DNA of 64,000 nucleotides from Cetorhinus maximus (taxonomy: Eukaryota): assembly GCF_964194155.1 (NCBI RefSeq), contig NC_135880.1:214396001-214460000 (forward strand), given 5' to 3'. This document shows positions 3,852-49,833 of the stretch, piece by piece. The position numbers were made by a program, and so were the translations under genes. Positions within the stretch are counted from its first letter, which is position 1; each line of letters begins with the position of its first letter. The notes under the pieces were generated by a model that was not told the DNA's origin, ran no database searches, and was given only the letters and a program-made list of their open reading frames with translations.

Positions 3852-4500
3852 AATATAAGAACATAAGAAATAGGAGCAGTAGGCCATTCAGCCCCTCCAG
3901 CCTGTCCCGCCATTCAATAAGATCATGGCTGATCTGCCCCAGGCCTCAACTCCCCTTTCGTGCCAACTCCCCATGGCCCTCAACTCCCCGATCTTTCAAA
4001 AATCTATCTACCTCCTCTTTAAATACTTTCAGCGATCTAGCCTCCACAACTCTCCGGAGCAGAGAATTCACTACCCTCTGAGAGAAGAAATTGCTTTGCA
4101 TCTCAGTTCAAATGAGTGTCCCCTTATTTTGTAACTATGTCCCCTAGTTTGATATTCCCCCACTAGTGGAAACATCTTTTCAGCATCTATCCTGTCAAGC
4201 CCCCTCAGAATCTTGTACGTTTCAATAAGATCACCCCTCATTCTTCTAAACTCTAATGAATAAAGGCCCAACCTGTTTAGCCGTTCTTGATAAGACAACC
4301 CCTTCATCCCAGGAATCAGTCTAGTGAATCTCTTTTGAACAGCCTCCAATGCCAGTATATCCTTTCTTAAACACGGGAACCAAAACTGTACACAGTACTC
4401 TAGGTGCAGCCTCACCAACATCCTGTACAGTTTTAACAAGACTGACCTAAACTCCAACACCCTAGCAATACAGGCCAAAATTCCATTTGCTTTCTTAATT
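3852..4500 (-). mobile_element. CR1 LINE, 5'-truncated (RT C-terminus and 3' UTR)
   Basis: ORF 4071-4478 LYRMLVRLHLEYCVQFWFP...LGLYSLEFRRMRGDLIETYKIL. Tandem tail (ataagaac)n at 3852. Confidence 0.92.
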
Positions 4501-6814
4501 AATCTAGGTCTGAATCCTGAAGCAAAGCCGAATGGCCTGGTAAAAAGTTGTTAAAAAGTCTGATCAAAAACTAAGTTTAAAGGTTGGCTAAATTGACTAC
4601 GATAGCTCTAGTAACCAACCCAACACCTTGGTTACTGAGCCTGGTAACTGTCAGATGAGAATCTGTTTTTGCCTGAGACATGAGAAGTGTGATAGGGAGA
4701 AGTCAATGTGCCATGTCTGTTCATGAGGGAATATGACTCGATTTGAACCATGCGAAAGGTATTCAAAATTTTGGATCCCAAAAGGGATTCTGCATTCAAT
4801 CCAAGAAACTCATTGCTTACCTCCGCTTGGCAGATTATGGTAATTATAGTTTGGATAAACATAGGACTGTAGCTTTAAGAATAATTCTGCATTGTAAGAT
4901 CACTTGATCTTTGGCAACCAATGTGTTAGCAGCATAGGGAACCTCCAGTAGAGAGTTCTTCTTTAGTTCTGGAGTTTGATGCATACGTGTAGTTGCTGCT
5001 GCTGTTTTGTAAATAAAGTTAAATGCGTCCACTAAGAAAAGTTGTCTGGAAGATCAACTCTATAACACAGATACAGAAGATTGTGTGCGTCCTTTGGTAT
5101 ATCAGTACTCTAGAAAAATGTGAGCATAGGAAGAAACCATTAATAGTGTCTAATGCAAGTCTAAAGGCTGACACATTGTGGTGTATGGTAAAAGCTCAAG
5201 AAGCTGCAGTGACTATAGGATGCTCAAAAGCCTTATGGAAAACTGTTGTGTACACAACCTACAACTCAACAGAGATAAGGATAAAATAAAACTTCGAGAA
5301 GTTCAAATTATGGAACCTATTAATCCAGGTCAAGGTTAAAAACAAGCTCAGAAAATGTCAGAGCAGATTTGAAAATCCACAAGCTCTTGAATGTCACAGA
5401 ATTTCAAGGATTTATGTCGCATCCCTCGCTCAGTTTTTTTTTTGTGGAAGCTAAATGATGTATGTGAATCACTGAAACAAAACTGACACTGAAAGATACA
5501 GAATGGTGTTAGCTGCACATTCACAGCCAAGCGATTGAACAAGTCAAACAGCTGGCAATATCTCACTAAGTATTGAAGTGTTGGAAGGCTGAACTCACCG
5601 TGCAAAAAAAATGCCCCTAACCCAAGGTCTGGAGCGGCACTGACATAGCTGGAACAGCTAGTCACACATGAAAGCATCATATCAGGATAAGGCCCGCCTA
5701 GATTGAAAAAGATATTATTTAAACCTGAGAGATTCCACTTATAAGTCCATGCCACATCAATAACTGTTTGGATCAGAGGTCGATAAAGGTTATATTGTGG
5801 AAACCACCTCATTCTACATCAAAACAGCTAGAAAGAATGTTAATTATATTCGAGATATTACCAGTACAGATAAATCATCAGCCACAAAAACAGTTGCAGC
5901 TTGATGATCTTTTTGTTAAAGTATGTTTATCATACAGTTCCAAGGATAAAGGCAAACCATAGGCGACAGAGAATAATATTGAAGACTTACCCATAGAGCC
6001 ATGACTGCAGGAGTTAAAAGCCTTCAGATTCTGTAGACGAGCACTTCACAATTTGACACTGAACAGGATGAGGTAACCAGCACCAGTTATTTCATTCTTT
6101 CTGTTTAGAAATGAACACAGTGCCCAGAATGATGATGTATTTTGAATTGAATGCGTAATAATCTTCAAATCATTGAGAAGGGAAATCATGTAATGTATCA
6201 TTTCAACCTGCATTGCACTGGAAGGTTGTTTGTGAAGAGCAAACATGTTTTTTTGAACAAAATAAATACAGTGTAGAACTGTAAGATTACATTGAGAAAT
6301 GTGGTTGCTCATCAAACAATAGAAATAGACAGCAGAAGGTGATAAAACCACATCAAGCACGTGAGCTCCTTGTTCAAAGGCTGGAAAGGATTTATTTGTT
6401 TTTGATGTTGTCTGTCAGAACATTGTTAATTATTATTACAATTACAAAGAAACATGCAACATGGAGGACATGCAAAAACCCTAACTTGAAAATTTGCAAT
6501 GTTAATTTGCAAAATGTGCAACACCACATGTCTGTTTTTCCAGATAATGGTCCATCTCAGAACAATTCATGACATTCCTAAGGAACTGGACTTTTAAGCG
6601 CAATACTTAACAGGAGTAGAAAAGTGAAATAAGAAATCCAAGCAACAAGATCTCTAATGACAGTAGTTAGCACGAGCAGATCCTTACTTAGCAATTTTGG
6701 AGTATGAGAGTGTGAGACTTGACAAGACAACCTCTTCATCCCAGGATTCGAGCAAACCCTTACTTTGGAGTCCAAAGCAGAGCCCAGTACACAGAACTAA
6801 GGACACTACAAGTA

Positions 6815-11810: not shown

Positions 11811-12507
11811 GTCAATTTATAGGTATGGCTAAACTCAAAATTGGTTTCTTGCTGATGTGTCTAGCCAATCAACAAGTGTGGTTAGTGCTGGCTTTACACC
11901 GAAGTCATTGGAATGAGCAGGCAGCACAAGTGGCATTCTGCCTGCAGTGCAAACAATGTGTGTTAATCGCGTAACACGAGCTCTGTGTCCGCTTTCAAGA
12001 GCTCGTGATTTTAACCCCTGAAACCTTTTTCTTGTTATTTCAGCTATTTCTTAAAATAAGTGCTAATTTAATCTCTTGCTCAAAGTTTCAAGTCATTGGC
12101 ACCTAGCAGGAACTCGGTGAAAACTGAATTAAAAGGATGGCTAACGGACATTAGGGTCTGCATTAGGGTTAGGGAGCGAGTAAAATCCAGAAGGCTTCCC
12201 TTGGCTCAAGCTAACAGGGCAACCTTCCAGCGTGGGTTAGGAGAATGCATGTGTCTGAACTGAGAGCATAGCAAGCAGTCAGTGGGCTAAGCCGCCGGCA
12301 ATTGATCAGGTGGAGTGGGGCGGAGGTGGCTGTGGATTCAGGCAACCATGCAGCATACTAATCTCTGGCCATCCAAGTAGTAGTCAGCACTCTCTGGAAT
12401 ACATTAAGGGCCTTTAGACTTAACCAAGAGAGGTTTTTAGTAAACCCAAGCTAACCCACTTGTCTCTCTCTCTCTTTTTCACCCTACAAGAGGAGTACAT
12501 CAGGAGC

Positions 12508-13742
12508 ATGGAGCCTGGTGACCCAGCTGTATGCCTCATAGCTTACAGAGAGCGGAGACGAAGGAGAAGAGAGTGACAGAGACACCTGCTGGGCAGAGAG
12601 GGGAGTAGCACCCTCAGGAAGAAGGGGCAGCTGGGGCACCCACACACACCACTGAAGAGCCACAGGAAGCCGTCGCTGGTCGGCGCCCAGATAAAGCCAA
12701 GGTCGACAGATGGAGATTGCCATTCATGCAGATGACCAAGAACCAGTGTCGCCAAAGACTGTGCATGTTCAGGGAACTGGTCAGTCACATCTGCCAGGTC
12801 TGCAGGATTTGGTGCCATGGGAACATGGAGGGCATCCATTGCCAGTGGCTGTGAAAGTGACCATAGTGCTCAATTTTTACACCAGTGGCTCCTTTCAGGG
12901 CTCCACAGGTGACCTCTGTGATATATCGCAAGCCTCCGCACACAAATGCGTCCATGAGGTCACGGATGCCATCTTGGCGAAAGCACACAGCCAGGAAGCA
13001 AGAGCACCTGGATTTGGGGAGATCTGAAGTTTCCCACAAGTGCAGGGTGCCATTAATTGCACTCACATGGCACTCAGATCTCCGTGGCAACAAGCAGTCA
13101 ACAACGTCAACCGCATGGGTTTCCACTCGCTGAATGTTCAGCCAGTGTGCAACCACCACAACTGCATCCTGCAGGTCTGTGCACGGTTCCCAGGGAGTGT
13201 CCATGACTCCAACATTCTCAGTAGGTATCAGATTCTTGACATCTTCTAGAGTCCACAGAAGCTGCAGGATTGGCTCCTCAGGGACAAGGGCTACCCACAG
13301 AGAACGTGGCTGATGACAACCGTTTGGCAGCCTCAGAGTGCAGCAGAGTGCGGGTACAACAAGGCTCATGCTGCAACTCGCACCTTGGTGGAGTAAACCA
13401 TTGGAATGTTGAAAATGAGGTTCCGGTGCCTGGGCCGGTTTGGTGGAGCCCTGCAATACAGTCCACAGAGGGTGTCCTGCATCGTCATCACCTGCTGCAC
13501 TCTTTACAACCTGGCACTGCAACGGGGAGAGAAGCTGACTGAGGAGGAGATGGAGGAGCTGCCCTTCTCCTCTGGTGAGGAGGATGTCGACAGGGATGAG
13601 GGCGAGGAGGTCCTCGAAGGTGGGGATGAGGGTGAGGAGATCCTCAAAAGCGAGGATGATGGCGATGAGGCCATCGCACTGGCCATGCAGGGCTGCCCTC
13701 ATAGCTGTTAGGTTCATGGAGGATGATGATGACATGCAGTGA
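12508..13742 (+). pseudogene. Harbinger DDE transposase (HARBI1-like, DDE_Tnp_4), inactivated
   Basis: Motifs AVKVTIVLNFYTSGSFQ, GAINCTHMA, NRMGFHSLNVQ, ARFPGSVHDS, DKGYP, GMLKMRFRCL, CCTLYN and an acidic C-terminal tail. In-frame stops at 13025, 13247 and ~13393. Confidence 0.93.
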
Positions 13743-14447
13743 GGAGACACCATAGATCCTTATATTGCATCTGTAGACATTTGTGTCTCTTGTCTGGCTT
13801 ATGGCAGTGCACATACCCTCTGTGATAAGGTTCCAGTCATGGAGATACAGCAGATGCCCATAGTCCCTACATTCCAGGAGGATGATGACGACGTACAGTG
13901 GGGATACTATAGATCCTCACATAGCTTATGTGAATGTTTGCCTCCTGTCTGGCTGATGGTACCTTACTTATGCTCTCTAAACACGGTCATATCATGGAGA
14001 AACTCTAACTTCTTCTGATCCTATGGCATCCTCCGTGAGCTGAATCCTTCAGGGTCACACTGTCACCGGACACAGATGCTGATGAGATGGGGGGGCAGCT
14101 ACACCTCAAAGATGCTGAGGGCACACAGAGAGAATGACGGAACTCTGTGCCGCTGGCCCAGGACATTCTGGAGGCAGTAATAGGCCCCTGTCAAGGTGCA
14201 GGCATGACTGATGTGTCCAGTGACAGTGAAGATCCCCCACTAGTGTGCCGGGAAGGTTGCATACTGCACAGGGAAGAGACTGAGACACTGGCTTTTATCT
14301 TGTGCAGGGACCAAGGTTTCACGTCTGAGTGACACGAACACTGTTCATCAGAACAAGGAGCCATAGGTAAGGAGACATTCTTGGGAGTTTATTTACAACA
14401 GTGAACATTATGTACAAGTGATTAACACCCGTGCCCAGGCTGTGCAA

Positions 14448-16190
14448 CTATATCATCCTAACCTTCCTAACCCTGCCTCTCTGTCTTGGTTCTCCCCCGA
14501 CAGCGGATGTTGAGGCAGCCTGCTGACTGGCAACACCCTGGCCAGGACTTTGGCCCCGTCGGGGAGGCTCGGCAGGGGGGCGAGCGGGACCGGTCAGGAA
14601 GCCGACCAACACCCGCAATCAGGGCCCGACCAGTGTGAAACCCACGCTGCAGCACTCAGCACTGCCTGTGTGAGGTGGTGGGGGGAGGGAGAGCGGGAGG
14701 AGGGCGAGCGTGCAAGTTTGTGCGTGCGTGCGGGTGCTGCCTGTGGCTCAGAGCTGCCTCAGGGAGAGGAAGATTTTGAAAAATTAGAAAAAAAAGATTT
14801 TAGTAGTGCGAACAACATGTCCCCTCACGTGGCTCTGTCACATGAACAGAAATTAATTCGAAAAATTTTAATTTTTTTCATGCCGGATCGATACCTCATC
14901 CCGTCCGTGGATGATGTTTCACAAAAATCCAAAGGCCGCTTGGCCTTTTTGCCTGCCCGCCAACAGTAACGGTTGGACCAGCAGTGAAAAATGTAATTCA
15001 ATTACACTTTTAATGGCCTTATTTAGGCCTGTTAATTGTCAGCTGGAGCACTGCCAACTCCCACGTGCGCCCGCCGACCGAAATATCACGGCCGGGACCC
15101 TCACCCGATGTCATCACACATCATTTTTCGCTTGTTCGGGTCAGGCGCACGCCTGCCCAACAAGCAAATAATTCTGCCCCCTGTCTGTGATGACCTTGAT
15201 GGGCGTCCTCTGGTGGGCCAAGACCTGGAGGGCACCGGCCTGCTTTCTGGGTCCTGCTGTGTGGCAGTGGCACCCTCCTCTGCCTGTGGCTACTGGGGCC
15301 ACAGGAAGCCAGGGGTGGGGTGGGGGGTTCTGATTGGCCGGACACTCCTGGAGTCACCTGGAGTAAATGGCTCTGGGGTGTGCACCTGCTGATCCTCCTC
15401 CCTCTGGGTGCCCAGGGTCCCTGATTCACTCCTTGAGCGGAAGCGGAAGCTGGCGTGAGATCGAGTTGCCCCGCACCCTTCTCGCATTGACACTATTGGA
15501 GGCCAACTATGGCGTCATTGATGGAATTCAGCTCACGTAGCAGTGCAGGACTGGTGTCCTGGACCAAGGTCTCCATGGCAGCCACCACCCTAACAGTGTT
15601 AACCTCCGGCACTATCATTTCAGACTGAAGGTGGACAGACTCCTCCATCGTGCTTTGCAATCTGAGTCCGTGAGGACCTTGATTTCAAGCATCCCTCCAC
15701 CAGTCTTGTTGTGTGCCAGCTTATCCTGCATGAATACAGATGGAGAGAGTGTAAGCAGGATGCCTGCCAGGCCAGATGATAAGTATGCCTGGCATGTGTG
15801 GGTGATAGTCATCCCATGGACGGGATGAGGACAAAGAAGACGTGTGAGAGAGTGAATGGTGATGTCCCTTGAACTGGCAGCGAGTGAGATCCCTGTTGAT
15901 GTGTGATGGGCTTGTGTGTGTGTGTGTGTGAGTTGAGAGTGTTGAGAAGAGTGACTTACTCTGGCGGAATGGAAGAGATCACGCATCCTCTTTTCAGCAC
16001 TGGGTGGCTGCCCTTTTTCACAGGGCGTTGGCGCTGACCACCGCTGCCACCATTTCCCATGCTGAATTAGCCACTTTGCCTGCTGGCCTTCGCCCAGAGC
16101 GGTGGTAGAGGACATCGCAGCTGGCCTCCACTGCGTCAAGGGAGGTTTTGGTAAACCTGGGGCAGCATGGCTCCTCCGTTTGGCAGCCAT
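14448..16190 (-). pseudogene. Harbinger Myb/SANT-like DNA-binding protein, copy 1 (internally deleted, MITE-interrupted)
   Basis: MAAKRRSHAAP...KRMRDLFHSAR followed by donor gtaagt (~15959). Exon 2 DKLAHNK..GGGMLEIKVLT is fused by deletion to exon 3 at ~15662. Homologous to copy 3. Confidence 0.85.
14540..15179 (-). mobile_element. Harbinger-type MITE, family A, copy 1
   Basis: Termini GGCCAGGACTTT...AATAATTCTGCCC with TSD CCT (14537-14539 / 15180-15182). The empty site is seen in Harbinger copy 3 (cgtcctgtctgtga). Confidence 0.85.
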
Positions 16191-17615
16191 GACCTTACAG
16201 CAGCTTCCTATCCCTGGAAGAGTGCTGGCTCTTTGCAGGGTCAGCCTTTAGCCATGGTGCCAGGTTTGGTGAAGGCCTGATGTGACGGCAGAGCGGGCGA
16301 ATGACAGGCTGCCCCACCAGCGACCCGGAATGTTCCTCGGGATTGCATGATTAATGAGGCGGGGTTAGGACCATTGCGGCTGGCGGGTAAAATGTCCTTT
16401 TTCCCGCCCACTACCGCACTTAGTGCAAATCTGGGACTATTCCGCCCCATGTATTTACATAGAAACAAGCACTTGCAGTGTTCCCTAAAACTTGAATGCT
16501 GGTTATAATATAAAAATATATAAATAGCAACCAATATTTCTATAATTTCAGTAGGTTTGTTTTTTTTAATCTTTTTAATTTGAGGAAAATTTGGACCTGA
16601 CTTTAAAGCAACATTCCCCATTTTCTCATCACAGACATTTATTTGATACAATTAGCGACTGAAAGAAAGAGTGCCTCACAGCTTGCTGTGTCAGTATTTC
16701 TATGTTCAGCAAAAATATAGAGCGATGTGAAACTCAAGATTTTAAACCCAGTGACACTTGGTCTTATTTTACTTCTGTGTCAACTATTTTGTTAAAAATA
16801 ATGGTATTTCTGTAACATATGTCTTGTCCTGAACAGCCTTCAGCACGCAGATATACAGGAACCCAAGAGCTTCTCTTGATCGTTGTGTTTTCTGCTCAGG
16901 AAATGGCATTTCTCAGGGAAAATGATGCACTCTTCAGATGGTTGCCAGGGCGACACATTATATTGTGGAACTGGTATTTTTCACCGTCTTGTTGGCCTTG
17001 ACAATTGCACTTTTATGAAGGATGGACGCCGCATGAACAGAGTGGATCTATGTTACCCTTGAAACTTCTAATACATGCCACTGTAAGGTTTTTTGTTTTG
17101 TGGCCTTTTTTCTGAAGTTATTTCTGTGCAAAGTTTTTATTGTGCGTGTTTGCTTTTGATCTAGAATTCTATTCAGTCTTCACACTTTGTTCTCTGGAAT
17201 TCTCTCCCTAAAACCTTCCCATTTGTTCCTTCCTCCCTCTTGAAAATGCTCAATGAAGACTGTTATCTATGACTATACCACCAGTTTCACCTCTTCCCAA
17301 GTTCCAGCCTTTTTCTTGCTTGTTGTCCCCCTTTAAGCGCTCTGAGACTCTATACGGGAGAAGTGGTTTATAAATGAAAATTGTTTTTAATACAATCATT
17401 CAGAGGACTCGCGGCCCGGCAGGATAAAAGTCATTTTACCCGCTGGCCGCAGTGGTGGGTTTTCATGCTGTATCGTCCCATTCCTGGCACGTCCTGCCTC
17501 ATTAATCATGCGTTCATGGGAAACAGGCCGGGTTGCTGGCCGGACAGCCTCTGATTCGCCTACCCCACTGTCACCTCAGTCCATCAATAATTCGGGCACC
17601 GTATTTAAAGGGCAC

Positions 17616-17902
17616 TGTTGGTACTTATGAATCCCATGCTTGTTGTGGGATGGCCGAGCCAGATCGAGTTGATCGGCAGATACTTCTTAGGTGGAACACT
17701 TTCTGTTTATTTACAAGGTACTCGGCAGCTACACATGTGTGCTTGTATACCAAACCCTATCTCCATACTTCTGACTACTAGCTACTGACTACAGAGGTAG
17801 CCCATCCTCCTCTTCTATTGCTTACACAAGATCATGTGATCTTCCTTATAAACATTCTTCTTAACGGTACACTACGCATTACATAAAATCATAATTACCA
17901 CA
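17616..17902 (-). repeat. 3' LTR of Gypsy element 1
   Basis: Direct repeat of 23252-23559 with substitutions and indels. Confidence 0.93.
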
Positions 17903-19362
17903 TCCCTCCCCTTTTACTTGGAACATACATCTTACATTTACAATTTTCTCAAAATAGAACATTATTTACACAGATAAGTAATTTACAAATTCAGTCTTTC
18001 TGGGGGTTTCCTTATGCGTGTAGAACATCTCAGCTCCACAACTTGGATGCTTTGTTAGGAGCCTCATTTTCTGGGAGTTGTCTGAACATCAGGTTCTTCA
18101 GCGGGTACCTGCAAATCTGTTTCCTCAACTCTTGCAGTACATCCGACACGTGAGACACATCTGTACTGGGATGAGTTCTCTCAACAGGAAATGCTGACCC
18201 GGTCATGAACACTGGTGGAATCAGTTCTTGGTGATTTGATTCTCTGTTCCTTAGATGACCCGCATGTCTCCGAATGACTCAGCCCTCCGCCTCCACGTGG
18301 TAAGATAGAGGTCCAGTCACTGCGCTTATTTCATCCGGAAACCACTTTGGTCCTTCTCCAAAGATTTTCACATATACTGTCTCTCCCACGGTAAATTTCC
18401 TCTCATGACTATGCCAGTCGTGTTTCGTTTTCTGACTTCCCTGTCTCCTTTCCACCTTCCCCTCTAAATTCGGCATTATTAAGCTCAATCTCGTCATGAG
18501 ACGGTGTTTCATCAATAACTCCGCAGGTGTGACACCTGTTGCTGTCTGAGGGGTGGGCCCTGTAATGGAAAAGAAAGCGTGCTAGCTTGGTTGCTATGAA
18601 ATCTCCAGTCAACTTCTTCATGCCAGCTTTGAATATTTGAACCGCTCTTTCAGTCAGTCCATTTGAGGAAAGGTGGTAGTGAAGTTTTTACATGAGTGAT
18701 ACCATTGAGACTGATAAACTGTTGAAACTCAGCACTCGTAACTGCCATGCTGTTATCAGATATGACTACTTCTGGTAGTCCGTGAATGGCAAAACTTTGA
18801 CGTAGCTTCTCAATTGTAGCAGAAGACGTTGGTGACTTCACCTCATATATGTCCATCTATCTTGAGTGGGCATCAACAATAAGCAGAAACAATGTCCCCA
18901 TGAAAGGTCCCACATAGTCAATGTGTAACCGAACCCATGGTCTTCCTGGCCACTCCCAAGGGTGTAATGGAGCTGTTGAAGGTAACTTTTGCAATTGCTG
19001 CACTGCACGCAATTCTTCACTAAGTCTTCCATTTCTCCATCCATCCCAGGCCACCATAGATAGCTGCGTGCTATGGTCTTCATTCAGGATATTCCTGGGT
19101 GTGCACTGTGTAGTTCAATTAACAACGGCTTTCTTCCTTTTGGAGGTACTATCACTCGTGCTCCCCACAATAAGATCCCATCTTGGCTGGTTAGTTCATA
19201 TCTTCTGTTGAAGTACGATTGCATTTAATCTGATACAGGCTCTTGTGACCAACCATAAAGCACTTGTTCTTGTACTGGAGATAGGACTGGGTCCCAACTT
19301 GCCCAGTCTCTGATCTGTCTAGCGCATACCGGCGAGGAATCTCAGAAATTTAACAATAACAC

Positions 19363-19479
19363 GGGCAGAATTTTACAGCACCCTCGCGGCGGGGGTGGGG
19401 CTGTAAAATGCAGCGAGCTGTTCAAAAGTCCATTGACTTCAGCGGGATAATAAAATCCCATCGGCATAAAATTACACCA
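19363..19479. mobile_element. Small Harbinger-type MITE in Gypsy pol
   Basis: GGGCAGAATTTT...AAAATTACACCA with TSD CAC. Removal restores the QELVLL reading. Related to 57208-57335. Confidence 0.8.
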
Positions 19480-19604
19480 CACAAGCTCTTGTGTAATTGG
19501 GACATCATCATCACTGTCTTGTAAAGGCAAACGACTAAGTACATTACAAAAACAGAATTACCTGGAAAAACTCAGCAGGTTTGGCAGCATCGGTGGAGAA
19601 GAAA

Positions 19605-19647
19605 TCAGTTAACGTTTCGAGCCTTCACGACCCTTCGGCAGAACTGA
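19605..19647 (-). ncRNA. Minimal type I hammerhead ribozyme motif (variant core CUGCCGA)
   Basis: Minus strand reads TCAGTT-CTGCCGA-A-GGGTC-gtgaa-GGCTC-GAAA-CG-TT-AACTGA. Stems I and II pair, and stem III is the palindrome AACGTT, as in PLE-associated hammerheads. Confidence 0.7.
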
Positions 19648-20019
19648 AGCATAGTTAGGAGAAAGGAGAAATATAAGCTGGTTTAAGGTGGGGGGGGTGG
19701 GGGGGAGAGAGAAGTTGAGGGTGTGGTGATTGTGGAGATAAGCAAGCAGTGATAGGAGCAGATAATCAAAAGATGTCACAGTCAAAAGGATCAAAGAGGT
19801 GTTGAAGGTGGTGATATTTGTCTAAGAAAAGTGCTAATTAAGAATGGAAGACAGGATACTCAAGGTACAGCTCTAGTGGGGGTGGGGTGGAAAGACTAAC
19901 AAGGTTTTAGTTTTAGATTTAAAAATAATGGAAATAGGTGGGGAAAGAAGAATCTATATAAATTATTGAAATAAAAGGGGAGGGGGGAGAAACGGGGTGG
20001 GGATGGGGGGAGGGGGAGT

Positions 20020-21156
20020 TTAAGATCTAAAGTTGTTGAATTCAATATTCAGCCCGGAAGGCTGTAAAGTGCCTAGTCGGAAGATGAGGTGCTGTTCCTC
20101 CAGTTTGCGTTGGGCTTCACTGGAACAATGCAGCAAGCCAAGGACAGACATGTGGGCAAGAGAACAGGGTGGAGTGTTAAAATGGCAAGCGACAGGGAGG
20201 TTTGGGTCTTTCTTGCGGACAGACCGCAGGTGTTCTGCAAAACGGTCGCCCAGTTTGCGTTTGGTCTCTCCAATGTAGAGGAGACCGCATTGGGAGCGAC
20301 GAATGCAGTAGACTAAGTTTGGGGAAATGCAAGTGAAATGCTGCTTCACTTGAAAGGAGTGTTTGGGCCCTTGGACGGTGAGGAGAGAGGAAGTGAAGGG
20401 GCAGATGTTGCATCTTCTGCGTGGGCATGGGGAGGTGCCATAGGTGGGGGTTGAGGAGTAGGGGGTGATGGAGGAGTGGACCAGGGTGTCCCGGAGGGAA
20501 CGATCCCTACGGAATGCCGTCAGGGGGGGTGAAGGGAAGATGTGTTTGGTGGTGGCATCATGCTGGAGTTGGCGGAAATGGCGGAGGATGATCCTTTGAA
20601 TGCGGAGGCTGGTGGGGTGATAAGTGAGGACAAGGGGGACCCTATCATGTTTCTGGGAAGGAGGAGAAGGCGTGAGGGAGGATGCGCGGGATATGGGCCG
20701 GACACGGTTGAGGGCCCTGTCAACGACCGTGGATGGAAAACCTCGGTTAAGGAAGAAGGAGGACATGTCAGAGGAGCTGTTTTTGAAAGTAGCGTCATCA
20801 GAACAGATGCGACGGAGGCGAAGGAACTGAGAGAATGGGATGGAGTCTTTACAGGAAGCGGGGTGTGAGGAGCTGTAGTCGAGGTAGCTGTGGGAGTCGG
20901 TAGGCTTGTAATGGATATTGGTGGACAGTCTATCATCAGAAATTGAGACAGAGAGGTCAAGGAAGGGAAGAGAAGTGTCAGAGATGGACCATGTGAAAAT
21001 GATGGAGGGGTGGAGATTGGAAGCAAAATTAATAAATTTTTCCAGGTCCCGACGAGAGCATGAAGCAGCACCAAAGTAATCATCGATGTACCGGAGAAAG
21101 AGTTGTGGGAGGGGGCCAGAGTAGGACTGGAACAAGGAATGTTCCACATACCCCAT
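20020..21156 (-). CDS. Penelope RT (C-terminal half) plus GIY-YIG endonuclease, open but 5'-truncated
   Basis: 378-aa ORF: FLRYIDD, LPFLD, HYKPTD, Cys linker CPRRRCNIC, NLVYCI...LYIGETKRKLGDRFAEH, GLN. Confidence 0.93.
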   Translation of the reverse strand: MGYVEHSLFQSYSGPLPQLFLRYIDDYFGAASCSRRDLEKFINFASNLHPSIIFTWSISDTSLPFLDLSVSISDDRLSTNIHYKPTDSHSYLDYSSSHPASCKDSIPFSQFLRLRRICSDDATFKNSSSDMSSFFLNRGFPSTVVDRALNRVRPISRASSLTPSPPSQKHDRVPLVLTYHPTSLRIQRIILRHFRQLQHDATTKHIFPSPPLTAFRRDRSLRDTLVHSSITPYSSTPTYGTSPCPRRRCNICPFTSSLLTVQGPKHSFQVKQHFTCISPNLVYCIRRSQCGLLYIGETKRKLGDRFAEHLRSVRKKDPNLPVACHFNTPPCSLAHMSVLGLLHCSSEAQRKLEEQHLIFRLGTLQPSGLNIEFNNFRS

Positions 21157-21258
21157 AAAGAGACAGGCATAGCTAGGGCACAGCCACGACTAAGTACATT
21201 GGCGTTTGCAATTTGATTTCCAGGCCTATGTACAAAAGTGTGCTGCCAGGATCAAGGC

Positions 21259-21850
21259 TTATTTGTGTTTCTGTGTCTTCTTTCTTCTTTTTGACACTGA
21301 CTTGAATCTTGGCCTTCTTTTCGATTTACATATTGGCCAGACTCCTCTCAGGTGCAAGCTCAGCTTGAGAGAACTCAACGGTTGAGCTTCTCAGAATTTC
21401 ATCATCTGTCTGCTTCTTAGAAAATTCTGCAACTTTTGCCTCCAAAGCCTCTCTGGTTTTGTTTACCTGATTCTTCAGCTCTTCCAACTCTTTTTTTGTA
21501 TTTGTTCGCTGGCCCCTGGAAAATTGAACATTATTGTGTCTTCTCTGCCAACTCATCCTTCAGTTTATTCAGAGAAATGTTGAATTCTTTCTTTTCATAC
21601 TTTTCCAGAGGTGCAAACTTAGACCTGAGGGAATCTTGTCGTGTGTGAGAGTCTTTCAGCAGCATTTCTTTCTCCTTTTGAAGGTTGCTCACCTCATCTC
21701 GAACTTTGCTTTGAGAACGGTCTATTTGAGTTTGTTTTGCTGTCCTACTATGTTTCGGCTTAAGTCTGCCTGTGTTTCTTTAGCTTGTTGAGTCCTTACA
21801 AATTCCTTTTCCAAAACAGGAATATTTCCTGCTTCCTTTTGGAATCTCAG
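21259..21850 (-). pseudogene. UACA: Captured host coiled-coil gene fragment (UACA-like) replacing Gypsy RT/RNase H
   Basis: Manual translation EKEFVRT..LSRNIVGQQNKLK / RDEVSNLQKEKEMLLKDSHTRQDSLRSKFAPLEKYEKKEFNISLNKLKDELAEKTQ*CS / KKELEELKNQV..REALEAKVAEFSKKQTDDEIL / KEDTETQISL. These blocks are colinear with the vertebrate UACA coiled coil as I recall it. Not database-checked. Confidence 0.6.
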
Positions 21851-23033
21851 TGGCCAATCAAGGTTGATTTCCCTCAGCCAGTTTCATCCTAGGAGGTTTA
21901 GTCCTCAGCGTCTCAATACCAACGCTGGTAGTTTAACCGATTGGCTTCTGTATTTGACAGTAACTCTACTTTGACTTGGATATCTTCACCTGTGTAAGTT
22001 TTTAATTTGGCATCAGTTTCTTCCAAACTTAATTTATGTTCACCACAATTCAGATATTTGAAGATGTGTTCGCCAATCACAGTAGTGGAAGCTCCTGTGT
22101 CCACTTCCATCCTGATAGATCTGCCATTCACTTTTCACTTTCACTGTAACATAAATTGGTTCTGACTTTCCAACCTTCAAATTAAATAATGAATAAACAT
22201 CTGAATGTGTTGCTTCAGGCTCTTCTACATTGTAGATCTCATGGGGTTTTCGCTTTTGTTTGAAAGTCTGCCTGATTCTTTCCTTGCAATGTCTCATTAT
22301 ATGCCCATTTCGATGACAATAAAAACATTTGATTTTTTTAAACTGCCAATCATCATAAGACTGCTTATTTCCACCTCTGCTGCAATTATTCCTTGTTTTC
22401 GCTGTTAAGTCATTTCTTTTTATTTCTCTGCTAGCGGAGGCTATTTCCCGTTTCTCGGCAGTGTCTTGCATTTTTGCACCCTTTTTGGCTGGAGTTTCCC
22501 ACCCAACATGGAGGACGGCGCCATTTTGCACTCCCTCTATGGCTTTTGAATCCCTTACATGGCCAGTGCTATCTCTAGCACCTTCTTAAAATCCAAATTT
22601 GTTATGGGCAGTAATCTTTTCTGAATCGCGTCCTCATTCACACCGCACACTAAATGATCTCTGAGCACATCAGTTAACTCGCAATGTTCTGTTAATTGTT
22701 TCAAACTTGCCACGTAACAAGAACTGTCTCCCCCAGGGCTCTATTTCTTGAGTTATACTTGAACCATTGCATTGTTACCGAGGGCTTCAGCTGGTAATGA
22801 GCCTTCACAAGGTTCCCCAATTCATCAAGGTTTTTCAAATCTGGGGCACTGGGTGCCATCAAAATTCAAAATAAGCCGTCGGCTTTATTCCCACATGTAC
22901 TTCAGAGGATCACTCGCCTCTTCTCTTCCCCCGTAATGTCATTCACTTGGAAATAGAACGCGCGGTGTTCAATATAATGAGACCAATCACCCATGGCTGG
23001 ATGGACAGGGTCTATTCTTCCGAATTGCGGCAT
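21851..23033 (-). pseudogene. Gypsy gag plus aspartic protease
   Basis: ATG at 23033 MPQFGRIDP..DWSHYIE; CCHC knuckle CFYCHRNGHIMRHC; MEVDTGAS; LLG*NWLREINLDW. Confidence 0.92.
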
Positions 23034-23251
23034 CCTGTGAGGGGATTACTTTGACAATTCAGAAATTCTACTGATAATTGCTGTGCGAGGTACAGCCCAA
23101 TTCCGTTTCTCTCAATTTCTTCCATTAAGTGATTTTACTCTTGATGCTAGATCATTTTATCTTCCTTCTATCCTTGATTTTTGTTTGCTTTTTCCTTGCT
23201 TCATCCTCGTCGCAAGTTTGTTGAGTCATCGCTTTATCCTCGTCGCAAGTT

Positions 23252-23559
23252 TGTTGGGACTTGTGAATCCCAGTTACACGCTTGTTGTGGGATGGTCGAG
23301 TTGGGACTATAGATAGAGTTGGTCAGCAGGCACTTCTTAGGTGAGACACATTCCATTTATTTACAAGGTACTCAGCAGCTACACATATGTGCTTCTACAT
23401 CGGACCCCCTCTCCATACTTCTAACTACTAACTACAGACTACTGACTATAGACATAGCCCATGCTACTCTTCTATTGGTTACGCAAGATCATGTGATCTT
23501 CCTTCATAACATTCTTCTTAAAGGTATACTACACATTACATAAAACCATAATTACCACA
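23252..23559 (-). repeat. 5' LTR of Gypsy element 1
   Basis: Direct repeat of 17616-17902, adjacent to the PBS. Confidence 0.93.
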
Positions 23560-23603
23560 GGCGCCCCTGCACAAAGCTAGAACTCTCCAAGGGAGCGAAA
23601 GTC

Positions 23604-24960
23604 ATGGTTCCCAAAGGGAGGAAACATGCTGCCCCCAAATTTAGCACCGCTTCCCTCAGTCACTACTGGACACAGCGGAGGCCTGCCATGAAGTCCTCTA
23701 CTGCTCTCTGGGTGAAGACGAACAAGCAAGGTCACCAATCCAGCATGGGAGGCGGAGGCAGCGGTGGTCAGTGCCAATGATCTGCAAAAAAAGACAGTCA
23801 CCAAGTGCCAAAAGAGATGAACGACCTCCTCTGTTCCGCTAGGGTAAGTCACTCTTCTCATCACTCCCAACTCACACACTCAAAAAACCATCATACATCC
23901 ACGGGGATCTCACTCACTGCCAGTTCAAGGGATATTGCCTTTCACTCTCTCACATGCACCTTCATCTGCCCTGTGGATCATGTCCTCATGTCCATGGCAC
24001 AATTCATCACCCATACATGCCAGGCATCCTTCCCAAGTCTTCGACTCAAGCCCCAACGACACCTTGGAAGAAGAATTTGATGACACCCTAATTGAAGACC
24101 CGTCACAGCGCAGCCTCCACCAGCGCAGAGTCACACAGCTCAGTGGGACCTGGCTTTAGAATAGCCTTGGGTTCACAATCTGGTGAGCACATCGCTCGGT
24201 CTGATCCATAGCAGGCAGCAGCAGGGACTTCCCAGGTTTTCAGCAACATGAGGACTGCTAGAGGTTAGAAATCTGCTGAGTACGAGTCAGATGAGGGGCT
24301 GTTGCACTCGGTCATACCTCAGTAGCTGAAGCTTCAAAGGTAAGCTCGGGAAGACCAGGAAGGGATGTCGTCTGCAATCAAATTGCAAGACATAATGGTG
24401 GAGTCCGTCCGCTTTCCATCTGATGTGACAGTGCCGGCATGAAAATGCACCCAGATCAACATTGGTAGGATGGTGGCTGCCATGGAGGCCTTGGTCCAGG
24501 ACATTGGTCCTGCACTGTTGCTTGGGCTGAACTCCATCGCTGATGCCATTGGTGGCCCCCAACAGTGTCAACACAAGTGGGGTGCGGGGCAGCTCAATCT
24601 TACTCCAGCTTCCCCTTCTGCTCAAGGAGTCAGCCAAGAGTTCTCAGGCACCCATAAGGAAGAGGACCAGCAGGTGTACACCCTGGGGCCATCCACTCAG
24701 GTGGCTCCAGAAATGTTCAGCCGATCCAAATCCCCTCTTCCTGTGAACCCCGCAGCTCCAGCTCAACAGGCCAAGAAGGGTGCAGCTGGCCCACAGGAGG
24801 GTACCCAAAGCAGGCTGGTGCGCTCCAGGTCTCAGACTTCCAGGGGATGCCCACCAAGGTCATCATAACACCTTCTGTCAGCAGGCCACCTTCTCCTCTG
24901 CTGTGGATGTCTGGGGAGCACCAAGACGTAGCGACCGGGTTAGGAAGGTCAAGAAGTTGT
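23604..24960 (+). pseudogene. Harbinger Myb/SANT-like gene, copy 2 (exon 2 deleted)
   Basis: MVPKGRKHAAPKF...AWEAEAAVVSANDLQKKTVTKCQKEMNDLLCSAR followed by gtaagt. Exon 3 is homologous to copy 3 and ends RRSDRVRKVKK. Confidence 0.85.
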
Positions 24961-25519
24961 TGTTGCTCAGACTGGGCATGGATGTTAATCTCTTGTATAT
25001 AACATTCACAATTGTAAATGAACTCCCAAGAATGTCTCCTTGCCTATGGATCCTTGTTATGATGAGCAATGTTTATGTCACTCAGATGTGAAACCTTAGT
25101 TCCTGCAAAGGCAAGTGCCTCAGTCCAGGGCTTCTTCCCCATGCAATGTGTAACCTTCAGACCAAAGGGATGGTCCGGCTTCACACTCACTGGATGCATT
25201 AGTAATACCTACACCTCAGTGGTGCTTGTCATTGCTGCCAGAATGTTGTGGGCAGGCATCACCGAGTTCTCTCATTCTCTCTGTGTGCTCTCAGCACCTT
25301 TGAGGTAGGGCTGGTCCCCATCTCTTCAGCATCTGTGACCAGTGATGTTGTGCTCCTGAAGGGCTCAGGTGCTGAAGGCTGAACAAGGATCAGATGCATT
25401 TAAAGTTTCGCAGCTGCGACTCCATGATATGATCCTGATCACTGAGCACAAGTGAGCTGCCCTCAGCCAGACAGGAGTCAGACATTCACAGAGGTAATGT
25501 GAAGATCTGTGGTGTGTCC

Positions 25520-26649
25520 ACACTACATCGACATCATCATCCTCTATAAATATTACGGATATGCCGCCTGTGCACGCCTGTCCCGTCTGGCCGGTGCAAT
25601 GGTCTCATCACCAGCATCCTTGAGTTCGAGGACCTCATCACCGTCATCCTCTTCAATGTCCTCCTCATCGGAGGAGACGTGCATCTCTTCCATCTGCTCT
25701 TCAGCCAGGTCCTCCCCCTGTTGCCAGGTTGCGGAGTGTGCAACAAGCAACTATGATGCGCGACACCTTCTGGGGACTGTATTGCTGTGCTCCACCAAAC
25801 CTGTTGAGGCACCGGGCCCTCATTTTCAAAATGCCTATAATTTGCTCCACCAAAGTCCAGGTTGTGGCATGAGCCTCGTCTCTCTGCTGCAGTCTGAGGC
25901 CGCCACACAGGTGCCATTAGCCGCGTCCTCTGTGGGTAGCCCTTGTCCATGAGGAGCCAACTCTACACCCTCTCTGGACCGTGGAAGATGTCAGGGATCT
26001 GAGACTTGCTATGAATGTTGGAGTCGTGGATGCTCCGTGGGAATTGTGTGCAGATCTGTAGGATGCGTTTGTGGTGGTCACAGACCAGCTAAACATTGAG
26101 CGGGTGGAAGCCCTTGAGGTTGATGTAGTTGACTATTTGTTGCTACAGAGATCTAAGTGCCATGTGAACGCAGCCAAAGGCACCCTACACCTGTGGAAAA
26201 CCAGAGATCTGCGCAAATCCCAGCGCACTTGCTTACCGGCTTTTCTGATCCCGGGCAAAATGCCGTGGAAGGAGCCATTGGCCTAAACATTGAGTGCCAT
26301 GGTCACTTTCATGGTCACTGGCAGTGGATGTCCTCCATATCCCCATATCCCGCAGCAGCTGGCATATGTGACCGACCAGTTCTCTAGACATGCACAGTCT
26401 TCAGCGACACTGGTTCTCAGTCATCTGCAGGAATGACAGGCGCCATCTATAGACCTTGGGTCTAGCAAAGTGTCTACGAGCAATGGCTTTCTGTAGATCA
26501 GCAGCTGAGTGCACAGCAGGCCCTGCCACCCCTTCATGGTGTGGGAGGTGATCTTCCTTTTGACCAGCCAGGCACGTCCGCCACACTTTTCTTCTTCTTC
26601 TCTGCTCTCTGTAAGCCATGAGGCATATCGCTAAATCACCAGACTCCAT
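25520..26649 (-). pseudogene. Harbinger DDE transposase, copy 2
   Basis: MESGDLAICLMAYREQ start shared with copies 1 and 3; FPRSIHDS, MDKGYP and acidic tail. Frameshifts present. Confidence 0.9.
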
Positions 26650-27062
26650 GATCCTGATGTTCTCCTGCTGCAGGATCAAAGAGACAGATGCGTTATTAGC
26701 ATGTGTATCCTAAGAACCATTCTTGAATAAGTCTGAAGGCCCCTTCACTCATGCAGGAGATTGCCGGCTACCTCTTGGATGGCCAGTATGTAGTGCGCTC
26801 ATTGGCTGTCGGAAACCCCACCCACCTCCGCCCCACTCCACTTGACCGATTGGCGGTAGCTTCGCCTACTGGACTGCGTGCTGCGCTCTCAGCTCAGGTG
26901 CAGGCATTCTCCTAGCCCGCACTGCAAGGCTGTGCTGTTAACTTGAACTATCATGGATACTGGTTGAAGCCTGAATAAAGATGTTGCAAGGGTTTGTGTG
27001 TATCTCCACCAGTGACTGCACCATGGCCACCTTTTGCAAGGGGATTCTACAACTTGCCCAGC

Positions 27063-44765: not shown

Positions 44766-46563
44766 TCTGTGGGCCCATGTATGAAATAGTTTAGAAAGAA
44801 GGTCTGAATGATCTTGAGCAGAAGGAACCTCCCATCTAGTGTATAATTACCTTTAAAACATTTTGATGTATCTCAAAAGGAATTTTTATTCAGAATCTGA
44901 AAATGTGAAATGCAGTCAACCTGGATTAATTCTGTAGACTGGAAACTTTTGTGCAGTATCCCATGGGCTGTGGTCAACTCTCATTGAGAGCTCATGGAGG
45001 CAGTTCACAGATTTCTCATTCTGCAGGTTTTTATCTAATGTTATGTATCCCCCTCGAGAGATTGAATAATTTAGAGTACATGCCACCATACACTTTACAC
45101 AGGGTTAGGGCACATTCCATTGTACATTGCACAAAGCTTTTTTAATTCCATTCTTTACAACTGCCCCATACTTGCTGCCTAGTTATGAATTGCAAACACT
45201 ACCAATATCGTTACACAACCTGATTCCAATTTCTTCAGGTTGGAAATCAGACCAGAACATGTAGTAAATGTGGTGCACTAAAAACACAGGTTGATATACC
45301 ACTGTGATCTTTTGAGGTACATTTTAATAAAAAGCTACAGAGTTTGCAGAATACCCAAGTGTCAGATTCTTTATTAAAAGGCAGGATGCCATGCACACAA
45401 AAACAAATGTGTACCCACTGAGATTTCAAGAGTACCAGTCCAAGGCTACAAATACATTTGAACATCTTTAATATTTTATTGTTAATTGTTAATTTTAAAT
45501 GATAATATGAAGCTGGGACCATGTAGCTCTGCCCTAGGCTGTAATATAGATTGTCCCTTAGTGTTTTTACATTGCTTTGCCTGTTTTAGGTGAATAGTTT
45601 TATGTTTATTTGTAACATGGCTCTATTTCACACTGTCCCACAAGGCAAGAAATAAAAAACTGACCTCAAATGATTTGAAGTATTATACCAGTGCCAACTG
45701 CAGTCAGTTCAAACACTTTCTAATGATTACTTGTTTTTTTTTCTGTGGCATGTTCCATTTCTCCCTTTAATCTTTGCCATCCCAGTGTGTTCAAAAGCAT
45801 TCACTGAATATAAAGACTTAACAGTGACTATAGTCTCAGCTAAACTAGTTAAGAATGCAAAATCAATGAGAAGCGAGTTCTGTTTGTTTAAACTCTGAAT
45901 ATATATGGAATAAACCCCACAGACAGGCTTCAGGCAACAGGGGCACTGGGGGGTGGGGTCTGGGGGCCTGGGTGCCCTGCCTCGGAGGCAACTGTTTTCG
46001 GCAGGGTGGTGTCCGGGGACAACTGCCGCCCTGACATTGGATCTTGCGCACAAGCAATAGAGATGAGGGGGCAGGGTAGGCGAGGGAAGTGGCCATGCAT
46101 TAGGGACACCTCTATAAACTGTCTGCAGCTGAGACAGGCGCAGCCACAGTGATATGATTGAGGTCGGGCTCCTAGCCTGTCTGCCCAGGCAAACAATGCG
46201 GAGGCACCAATGTGCCACCGAGCCCTCCAGACCTTACCCTCCACCACCCTGGCACAGACTGCGAGTCTGCGACCACTTTACTGGGCCGCGCAGCAGTTGG
46301 ACTCCACAAGTAGTAGCAGCCGCTGCTGGAGGTGCTCACAGCCCCTTGCAATCTCAGCATCCCGGTCAGGACCTGTCTCCACCATGTCACAGGCTGACAG
46401 GGCAGCCATGCAGCGCACTCAACTGTGGCCATCTGAGGGGTGACCAGCACTCCCCGGGAAGCATTAAGGGGCAGTCACACAGGGCCAGGAAAGGTGCTAA
46501 GTACACCCACGCTAACCACACCTCTCCCTCTCTTTCATGCTGCAGGAGGACCACATCAGGAGC

Positions 46564-47787
46564 ATGGATCCTGGTGACCTAGCTGTATGCCTGATGGCCT
46601 ACAGAGACCGCAGAAGACGGAGGAGACAGTGACTGAGGCTCCTGGCCGCCCAAAGGCAGGAGCAGCAACTTCATGAAGAAGGGGCAGCAGGGGTTCCCGC
46701 ACATGCTGCCCAGGAGTGACATGGCTGGTCGGTGCCTAGTGACACCCAGGGTCTATAGACACTGCCTGCCATTCCTGCAGACGTCTGAGAACTAGAGTCA
46801 CCGATGACTGCTCATGTCTAGGGACCTGGTTGCTCACATCTACCACTTACTGCAGGACTTGGTGCCACGGGGACATGGAGAGCATCTAGTGCAGTGGCTG
46901 TGAAAGTGACTGCGGTGCTCAGTTTCTATGCCAGGGGCTTCTTTCGGGGCTCCACAGGTGACCTCTGTGGGATTTCACAATCCGCCACCCACAAATGCAT
47001 CCATGAGGTCACGGACACCATCTTCTCCGTGGCAACACAACTTTGTGCATTTCGCCCGGGACCAGGACAGCTAGGATGCAAGGGCCATTGGATTCGCCCA
47101 GATCTCGGGATTCCCACAGGTACAGGGTGCGATCAACTGCAGGCATCTGGTGCTTAGGCCTCCATTGCTGCACATGGTGGAGTACATCAGCCGCAATGGC
47201 AGCTGGTATGCAACCACCAGAAACGCATCCTGCAGGTGTGCGCACGGTTTCCAGGGAGTGTGCCCGACACCTACATCCTCAGTCGCTCGTAGATCCTTGG
47301 AGTCTCCTCGGGTCCACAGAGGCTGCAGGGTTAGCTGCTCGGGGACAAGGGCTACCCACAGAGGCCGTGGCTGATGACACCCGTGTGGAGGCCTCAGACT
47401 GCAGCAGAGCGACGGTGTAATGAGGCTCATGCTGCAACTCGCACCTTGGTGGAGCAGATCATCAGGATGCTGGAGATGAGGTTCCGGTGCCTGGACTGGT
47501 CAGGTGGAGCCCTGCAATACAGTCCACAGAGGGTGTCACGCATCATTGTCATCTACTGTGCCCTTTACAACCTGGCACTCCAACGGGGAGACGAGCTGGC
47601 TGAGGAGGAGATGGAGGAGCTGGAGGTTTCCTTGGATGAGGAGGACGGCAGCAGGAATGAGGGTGAGAGGCTCCTCGGTGGTGACGATGACAGGGATGAG
47701 GCTCTCGCACGGGCTAGATGAGGCAGGCACGCTCGGGAGGCCCTCATAGCTGCCAGATTTGTGGAGGATGATGACGACATGCAGTGA
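46564..47787 (+). pseudogene. Harbinger DDE transposase, copy 3
   Basis: MDPGDLAVCLMAYRDR; AVKVTAVLSFYARGFF; ARFPGS; LLGDKGYP; EAHAATRTLVEQIIRMLEMRFRCLD. Stops and frameshifts present. Confidence 0.93.
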
Positions 47788-48168
47788 GGAGACACCATAG
47801 ATCCTCACATCACAGTTGTGAATGTTTGACTCCAGTCTGGCTTCTGGCAGTGCCAATACCCTCTGTGAGAATGCTCCTGTCATGGAAATGCAGTGGAGGC
47901 CCTAATAGTCGTTCGATCGCATGAGGATGATGGCAACATGCAGTGAGGACACTCCATGAATCTTCACGTAGCCTCTGAGAATGTCTGACTCCTGTCTGGC
48001 CGAGGGCAGCTTGCTTGCGCTCCATTATCAGGGCCATCTCATAGAGACGCAGCCATGAAACTTTAGACGCTGTTTCCACCTTCACCACCTGAGCCCTTCA
48101 GGAGCTGGTGCACAGCATCAATGGTCACAGTATGTACAATGACCAACACCCATGCCCAGGCTGTGCAA

Positions 48169-49833
48169 CTACTTTTCCTTAACTTTCCTAACCCTGCCGC
48201 TATGTCTTGTTGCTCCCCAGACATCCACAGCTGAGGTGGAGGCAGCCTGCTGACTGCGACGTCCTGTCTGTGATGACCTTGGCAAGCGTCCTCTGGAGGG
48301 CTGAGACTTGGAGGGCACCAGCCTGCTTTTGGGATCCTGCTGTGTGGCAGTGGCACCCTCCTCGGCCTGTGGAGCTGGAGCTACGGAGGTCACAGGAAGA
48401 GGGGATTCGGAAGGGCCAGACACTACCGGAGTCACCTGGGTGGATGACCCTGGGGTGTGCATTTGCTGATCTCCCTCCCTATGGGTGCCAAAGTGCCCCT
48501 GGCTGACTCGATGAGGGAAAGGGTAGCTGGAGTGAGATCGAGCTGCCCAGCAACCCTCTCATGTATATATTGCTGGACGCCAACTATGCATCAGCGGTGG
48601 AGTTAAACTTGCGCAGCAGTGCAGGAGTGACATCCTGGACCAAGGTCTCCATGGTGGCCGCCATCCTGCCAGTGGACATGCCGGCGCTCTCACCTCAGCC
48701 TGAAGATGGTCGGACTCCTCCATCGTGCCTTGCAATCTGAGGAGTGCAGCGGACATCCCTTCCTGATGTTCCCGAGCTTGCCTTTGCAGCTCCAGCAACC
48801 GTGGCATGACCGAGTCCAGAGGCTCATCATCTGACTCAGACTCAACAGGTTCCTGGCCTAAAGCAGCCCTCCGCATGCCAGCGACCTGGGAAGTCCCTGC
48901 CTCAGCCTGCTGTGGATCAGACTGTGCACTATGATCACCAGTATGTGATCCCGTGCCTAATCTAGAGCTAGGTCCCACTGAAGTGTGTGTCTCTGCGCTG
49001 GTGGAGGGTTTGGGTGAGCGCTGTGACGCAACTTATGAAGGGGTGCATTCCGTTACCCCTTCGGATGTCCCCTCCAAACTGGCTTGCAAGCCCTGGGTCA
49101 TGGACTCCATCGGCTCTTGGAGTGATGGACCTGCAGAAGTAAGGGGAGATAATGAGTGCATGGCAGTGGCCTGTGGCAAGGAACACATTACTCACAGCAT
49201 GGTTGTCTGATGGATGTTGCACTGCTGGATCCTCACTTGATAGAGCAGCGCTGACCTCACTGTCAGCACAGGACCGGTCCCAGTCATCACGGCCAGCTGG
49301 ATGACCCTGTTCTCAAATTCCATAAGGACATGGAACTCCGGCATTCCTCCACTGGTCTGCGACCTTTCCCTCCTGTTGTGAGCCAGTTTGTCCTGCATGG
49401 ATAGAGATGGGGGGAGTGTATCAGGATGCCTGCTGAGTCAGACGATATATGTGTCTGGACTGTGTGGGTGGTGTGTGGTCCCGTGGACGGGCTGAGGACA
49501 ATGCAGGTGTGTGTGAGAGAGTGAATGGTGATGTCCCTTGAACTGGCAGTGAGTGAGGGCCCAGTGGATTTGTGAGTGCGTAGTTCGAGAGTGATGAGAA
49601 GGGTGACTTACCCTGGTGGAACAGAGGAGATCATTCATCCTCTTGCGGCACTGGGTGACTGTCCTCTTCTGAAGGGCGTTGGCGCTGACCACCGCTGCCG
49701 CCACCTCCCAGGCTGCAGCCAGAGAAGGGGTACAGGACATCCCGGCGGGCCTCCTCGGCATCCAGCAGTCACTTGAGGGACTGGTCGTTGGAGCCGGGGT
49801 GGGGGCTGAAGTCTTTTTCCCTTTGCTGGCCAT
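48169..49833 (-). pseudogene. Harbinger Myb/SANT-like gene, copy 3, three exons (49833-49612, 49392-49237, 49130-48169)
   Basis: MASKGKK..WEVAAAVVSANALQKRTVTQCRKRMNDLLCSTR^gtaagt; atgcag^DKLAHNRRERSQTSGG...^gtgagg; ctgcag^exon 3 with coiled coil LLELQRQAREHQEG, ending SGRVRKVKEK*. Confidence 0.88.

Follow-up and report, generated by a model that had tools for sequence, protein, structure and literature searches.

What stands in the place of reverse transcriptase (RT) in a Gypsy retrotransposon of the basking shark, and by what route did it get there? The question is raised by a 64,000-nucleotide stretch of Cetorhinus maximus DNA (the window), whose minus strand carries, between two LTRs, a Gypsy element (17616-23559) with a coiled-coil sequence behind its protease. 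On balance, we consider it likely that the window holds a decayed copy of a Gypsy family of several hundred copies, in which a UACA coiled coil taken from another LTR family acted as an oligomerising and probably translated tail of Gag-protease in RT's place.

The 5' LTR (23251..23559, minus strand) and the 3' LTR (17616..17902, minus strand) are direct repeats with 41 mismatches over 287 aligned sites. Both end in TG..CA and they are flanked by a 5-bp target site duplication (GGCGC at 23560..23564, partner GGCAC at 17611-17615), as in Ty3/Gypsy elements. A purine tract (~17903-17915) lies immediately upstream of the 3' LTR, and behind the 5' LTR there are two copies of a motif (23203..23249, minus) which resembles a primer-binding site; a duplicated motif of this kind was also noticed in another copy (L065). 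The broken gag (22223..23045, minus) was delimited by alignment to relatives and has a CCHC knuckle near 22290-22330. Pfam gave no match for this region; we assume that it is gag partly from familiar motifs, and from such gag motifs the element presumably belongs to a Mag-like Gypsy lineage. The aspartyl protease (21860..22134, minus), broken by frameshifts and stops, matched Pfam PF13650 (Asp_protease_2) above the cut-off (E 1.8e-5). Of the order protease-RT-RNase H-integrase seen in RT-bearing relatives, the family of the window element, here called family A, retains protease, an RNase H tail and integrase. In the window the RNase H tail (21186..21258, minus) resumes at 19481-19545 beyond a nested insertion, and the broken integrase and 3' region (18033..19362, minus) matched Integrase_H2C2 above the Pfam cut-off (E 6e-7) and rve below it (E 4e-5).

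The nested insertion is a 5'-truncated Penelope-like element (19546..21185, minus) with an RT end and a GIY-YIG domain (Pfam E 0.0016, under the cut-off). It interrupts the RNase H tail in the window copy alone, is flanked by a 15-bp duplication (21186-21200 and 19531-19545) and keeps an open frame of 389 residues. A further 118-bp insertion in the RNase H-integrase linker (19363-19480) is missing from other copies and matches L105 and L110. The whole LTR element sits in one of two inverted Harbinger-like DNA transposon copies, about 72-80% alike (12200-16400 versus 17400-17600 plus 23600-27000), and a third copy lies at 46400-49700; Pfam DDE_Tnp_4 was found at 13028-13246 (E 6e-7).

How much of pol is missing? 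From the protease end to the RNase H tail no YxDD motif occurs in the three sense frames across about 600 bp, whereas about 1.3 kb separates the same landmarks in five of the six RT-bearing relatives inspected. Some 1.3 kb of RT/RNase H has thus been replaced by about 0.55 kb, mostly UACA, as the original prediction from this DNA had proposed. An autonomous Gypsy element was rejected on the same two grounds, and the predicted non-autonomous nature of an element lacking its own RT holds. A domesticated host gene was likewise rejected, given hundreds of dispersed decayed copies and the stops and frameshifts of the window copy.

The first insert block continues the frame of the protease end, as had been read at the outset. 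The edge proposed at 21850 has to be moved: the first 15 or so codons after the protease align without indels to RT-bearing relatives, and hence are a pol linker (21813..21859, minus; W-x3-FQ-x2-A-x3-P-x-L), which sets the insert start near 21812. UACA block 1 (21471..21812, minus) corresponds to host exon positions 4197-4548 and contains a constrained core of 70 codons; block 2 (21368..21479, minus) corresponds to 4990-~5100 (both numbered on L101 reversed). An in-frame deletion of 450 bp, at a 9-nt repeat, has brought them together. The remaining 21259..21367 (minus) is a non-UACA tail inherited from another LTR family, family B; it is a linker without a traced source and probably ends in the first few bases of family B's ninein piece.

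The predicted UACA origin of the insert did not emerge from a protein search with one copy alone, which gave no match, nor from Pfam and PDB searches of the insert, which returned generic coiled-coil matches only; a profile was needed. Built from 15 copy fragments, it found seven matches among 8000 candidates scored. Six were UACA proteins of chondrichthyans, with E from 8e-27 to 2e-19 and an identity of 40-49%, and the seventh was a Carcharodon gene model with an A-type piece (72%); RAI14, ANKRD24 and ANKRD35 were absent from these seven. The host UACA exon, located at G000:C27, has an open frame of 911 codons and shares 94.7% identity with Carcharodon UACA. Its positions ~4197/4331-4548 are matched by all 30 A copies at 69-77% DNA identity, and 4990-5071 by 23 of the 30. 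Both blocks lie inside this one 2.7-kb exon and their register differs by 450 bp, the joint falling at the repeat GCTGAAGAA; the mapping was done by block-wise tests, long-gap DNA alignment being uninformative. Of the four colinear UACA blocks first claimed, two therefore stand (4197-4548 and 4990-~5100), followed by a non-UACA tail. The fourth, KEDTETQISL, is not UACA, since the last 110 bp of the insert matched the host exon in none of the 30 copies.

Coiled coils cross-match weakly, and with the one-copy search empty a chance likeness to UACA might be suspected, or a separate element lodged in a deleted copy. The first is countered by an E-value of 8e-27 together with DNA-level alignment to the host exon, the second by identical junctions in at least 200 places with no flanking duplication, so that we regard the probability of either as negligible.

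These junctions define a multicopy gene-carrying LTR family, as was foreseen. When insert and flanks were searched together, 38 of the 39 other places scored covered both junctions in a single match (80-83% identity). A 31-base motif across the 3' junction was found in at least 200 genomic places with one mismatch at most, and its reversed control in none; 13 of 30 known A copies match the motif, from which some 450 copies can be extrapolated, probably a minimum. The insert is no normal part of RT-bearing members either: UACA occurs in none of 30 such relatives, 13 of which show the Y/F-x-DD motif, and in one of them (L051) protease and integrase match those of a chimeric copy at 83-84% identity. 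LTR divergence is 0.075-0.156 per site in 13 of 15 full-length A loci (the other two yielded no pair), which makes the family old; all copies seen are old and decayed. Rough LTR-pair ages only were obtained for family B, RT-bearing loci and a third family, C, as some chosen pairs are other repeats. The protease DTG is intact in 17 of 30 A copies. In 3 of 30 the proposed Gag-protease-coiled-coil frame was recovered, free of stops over the C-terminal portion of the protease and the entire insert; it terminates at the 3' junction. In an unrooted tree of the protease region 20 RT-bearing copies form one clade ending a ladder of A copies, and this topology fits repeated flank exchange with helpers.

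Did family A take UACA from the host itself? A search with the UACA stretch missing from A gave 165 matches, and the 150 candidates scored comprised the host exon and many decayed copies of family B (loci L102-L120 and L153-L167, for example L119:2712-7047 and L120:2956-7314). A family B element holds a gag fragment followed by UACA (up to 1.35 kb, 75-88% identity), a 93-nt linker of untraced source gene, ninein and spliced TPR. Its LTRs measure 250-290 bp, the motif behind the 5' LTR differs from that of A, and neither blastn nor tblastx found similarity between the two families outside the cargo. The ninein piece was recognized by profile (E 2e-28, seven of eight matches being shark nineins), and the host ninein exon at G000:C19 is matched by all 15 family B loci compared, at 77-84%. 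The TPR piece matches Pfam PF25481 (up to E 1.5e-20). It joins eight host segments spanning 14 kb, with six gaps of 0.7-7.5 kb missing and GT donors at five segment ends, which argues for capture from spliced mRNA. The intron loss expected for the insert thus holds for the TPR piece of B, the donor; the two UACA blocks both fall within a single exon and cannot display it. One family B copy carries UACA, linker, ninein and TPR in a single frame. No protease was recognized ahead of the family B cargo, by eye or with Pfam.

Subfamilies of B are defined by deletions of 126, 147 (147-148 by ungapped blocks), 210, 282 and 450 bp and by one rearranged form. Repeats of 8-11 nt occur at four of these five deletions, and the ninein-TPR joint shows a short match. 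The outer junctions of A share at most a few bases, and GCCTT, which had been suggested as microhomology at the 3' junction, proved to be a sequence variant that the window copy carries on its RNase H side and that the donor does not share.

Nine distinct B loci, among 45 examined (a few fetched twice), share the 449-450-bp UACA deletion of A. All 30 A copies are colinear with a B copy of this class over a median of 509 bp at 65%, and the alignment extends about 90 nt beyond the UACA match, into the linker. The derived residues K10, D11 and K22 occur in 29, 27 and 27 of 30 A copies and in 12, 12 and 20 of 25 B copies; the host lacks them and so, on visual inspection, do six outgroup UACAs. As B contains sequence that A lacks, the direction was from B, or a B-like ancestor, to A. 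The alignments indicate that A's insert was acquired second-hand in this way, and the template switch of this element straight onto a host mRNA, as first imagined, has to be given up. Independent capture of UACA mRNA by A is very improbable. The 210-bp core DNA tree taken alone is compatible with B forming a clade separate from A (p-AU 0.13), and the 9-nt repeat could yield the same 450-bp deletion twice; however, separate capture does not account for the non-UACA linker and the derived residues common to both families, and A is further from the host (69-77%) than B is (75-88%).

When did B take up its cargo? A protein tree (265 columns) groups 11 B copies in a clade (100/99), which branches with host plus Carcharodon and Mustelus plus Scyliorhinus, after Heterodontus. 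A core DNA tree without outgroups had placed the host inside B; it was discarded as a guide to direction because six outgroup proteins make B a clade. Of 13 sites with a derived residue common to host and Carcharodon, 11 still show the ancestral one in most B copies. Placement and ancestral residues both suggest that the capture is older than most of the branch that led to these two sharks. This might correspond to a Jurassic date.

The TPR cargo leads to a third family. PF25481 scored above the cut-off in all 150 places scored (1687 candidates). Several of the 14 non-host TPR loci fetched lack UACA and match B in the TPR part only. These are family C (L133-L142 and L148-L152, for example L134:2936-4942 and L135:4181-5965), with SCAN-type gag and a protease-like stretch, then in-frame TPR from its first exon; one copy is stop-free over 669 residues. 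B and C have common TPR residues absent from host TPR, and TPR dS is 0.39 between them versus 0.47-0.50 to the host, which together point to a single TPR capture now in both families. Downstream in family C there are more helical-looking segments without Pfam match, which may be further captured genes. For the TPR-bearing loci L138, L139 and L152, several places on contig C24 and on small contigs scored equally; they lie next to C2H2 zinc-finger arrays and probably represent segmental duplication rather than recent transposition.

Was the insert used as a protein? Its selection was estimated from pairwise distances, with the B-to-A branch obtained by subtraction at high divergence. Over 151 codons and 9 of 10 donor-subfamily loci this gave dS 0.50, dN 0.22 and a ratio of 0.44 (0.28-0.69); the donor subfamily itself has a ratio of 0.74, which leaves a modest contrast over the whole insert (P 0.022). 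The same comparison gave 0.25 (0.11-0.54) for the core and 0.67 and 0.54 for the insert flanks, where the intervals include 1. For the 70-codon core with 15 of 25 B copies (ten had breakpoints or poor alignment there), dS was 0.46 and dN 0.13, a ratio of 0.28 (0.14-0.57) against 0.89 among B; the ratio was again 0.28 with all 25 B copies and 0.14-0.15 for CpG-free codons. Constraint is clear only in this core. No codon of the insert has turned into a stop in as many as half of the copies, and in neutral simulation at 0.18-0.38 changes per site 154 codons stayed open in 4% to 0.6% of runs. From these patterns it is quite likely that the insert was translated and under purifying selection on the B-to-A branch. 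Of two other arguments for selection, the first was given little weight and the second dropped. The five deletions of B are in frame, and so are 53-80% of chance microhomologies in the UACA exon; the deletions do not preserve heptad phase, as 282 and 450 bp are not whole heptads. Among A copies dN/dS is 0.45-0.53 for protease and 0.56-0.70 for integrase. The integrase (18033-19362 in the window; A loci L063-L080) looks constrained though it lies in another frame, beyond the 3' junction at which the insert frame ends, a point against the main reading; refreshing from helpers or a frameshift might be involved.

What could such a protein do? The predicted structure of the insert consists of two long helices, with 106 residues at pLDDT 90 or above and pTM 0.32. 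UACA, ninein and TPR are all long coiled-coil proteins, and in A and C the cargo lies behind the protease and in frame. According to one HIV-1 study (PMC3291649), a heterologous dimerisation domain behind the protease raises Gag-PR multimerisation and cleavage, and the leucine zipper used in that construct lowered particle yield. Given this analogy, the cargo position in A and C and the long coiled coils of all three identified cargo genes, the tail may have held Gag-protease molecules together, or to the helper polyprotein, as RT normally helps do; we propose this tentatively. Because no protease was recognized ahead of the B cargo, a single protease-centered function cannot cover all families.

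The cargo could also be a tolerated filler, kept for RNA-level reasons such as packaging length or an open frame avoiding NMD, its soluble helix being harmless to Gag-protease. The near-neutral insert flanks, the large deletions and rearrangements that B tolerated, A-rich coiled-coil DNA rich in in-frame microhomologies and the seemingly interchangeable cargo from three unrelated genes all agree with this. Selection for an open frame alone, however, predicts dN/dS near 1 apart from stops, whereas the core shows 0.25-0.28, and a harmful tail could be avoided more simply by a stop after the protease. We therefore consider a filler unlikely, if still the most serious competitor of the oligomerising tail. 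Host mimicry, a candidate for the TPR-bearing families, is clearly less probable again. Here the helices would steer the particle to host structures, or disturb them (the nuclear basket with TPR, the centrosome with ninein), for instance for export of unspliced RNA, which TPR regulates according to PMC11289042; all three donors are indeed structural coiled-coil proteins. But A holds only a 150-codon piece of UACA, 40-49% identical to shark UACA, and has dropped ninein and TPR, and such drift from the host sequence is contrary to what mimicry predicts.

Keeping to the oligomerising tail, the following sequence of events can be proposed. Early in galeomorph or lamniform history an LTR element would have captured host mRNAs by template switching within its particle. 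Co-packaged RNAs of unrelated LTR families would then have swapped the cassette, giving rise to family A. RT-bearing relatives may have copied A in trans, its flanking genes probably being refreshed from them, while Gag-protease-coiled coil would have been translated in cis. In its widest form the proposal, plausible at this stage without being the expected outcome, is that of a module that can be transferred: coiled coils of the host genes UACA, ninein and TPR, acquired from mRNA, would have moved among three or more unrelated LTR backbones, and selection would have favoured them as an oligomerising tail replacing RT in helper-dependent elements.

Most known examples of LTR elements capturing genes in animals are young and of low copy number, and they are interpreted as sources of host retrogenes. 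Long-lived spread, crossing between families and protein constraint point to a cargo used by the element, not by the host. The three families form a natural collection in which to test the cis requirements of non-autonomous LTR elements and the part played by the domain that follows the protease. They also carry a warning for annotation, as element pieces enter shark gene models (two Carcharodon proteins) and create hundreds of false UACA, TPR and ninein matches. In one of these two models (P0010), an Ig/MHC-domain model, there are family A gag-like and coiled-coil pieces, and the other (P0018), mucin-13-like, starts with the family B linker; either exonisation or annotation error could explain them.

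How do these families compare with known systems? LTR gene capture as such is not new. What we did not find in our searches is a relay between backbones with repeated coiled-coil cargo; the literature covered showed no report of shark UACA, ninein or TPR capture or of such a relay, and lay outside Repbase, Dfam and subscription journals, where the families may be catalogued. The nearest relatives are the LTR-mediated retrocopies of Tan et al. 2016 (PMC5131818), in whose accessible text host mRNA likewise replaces part of an internal ORF while both LTRs are kept. In family A, too, part of the internal ORF is replaced by host coding sequence in sense orientation, and multi-gene chimeras and further rounds of retroposition are found in both; to the short similarities at switch points described there correspond, in the shark elements, chiefly the repeats at internal deletions and the match at the ninein-TPR joint. 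The cases described in that text are young and of low copy number, whereas here there is a family of hundreds, the cargo crossed unrelated backbones, and purifying selection probably acted on the element lineage. A further difference is that the direct parent of A's insert is LTR family B, the host mRNA standing one step back. Maize Bs1, as cited in PMC5131818 and PMC7264820, is likewise an LTR element with pieces of three unlinked host genes; it is a plant element with one backbone, in contrast to the all-coiled-coil cargo on three backbones seen here. Engineered HIV-1 Gag-PR-leucine zipper (PMC3291649) also places a heterologous coiled coil behind the protease, in RT's place. It is a laboratory construct in which premature cleavage cut particle yield, and it serves as a working model, not as a relative.

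Acutely transforming retroviruses have a defective genome, a host sequence fused to gag and dependence on a helper, all of which family A resembles. The shark elements differ from them in that no envelope or signalling domain was seen, in amplification through the germ line and in a cargo of structural helices.
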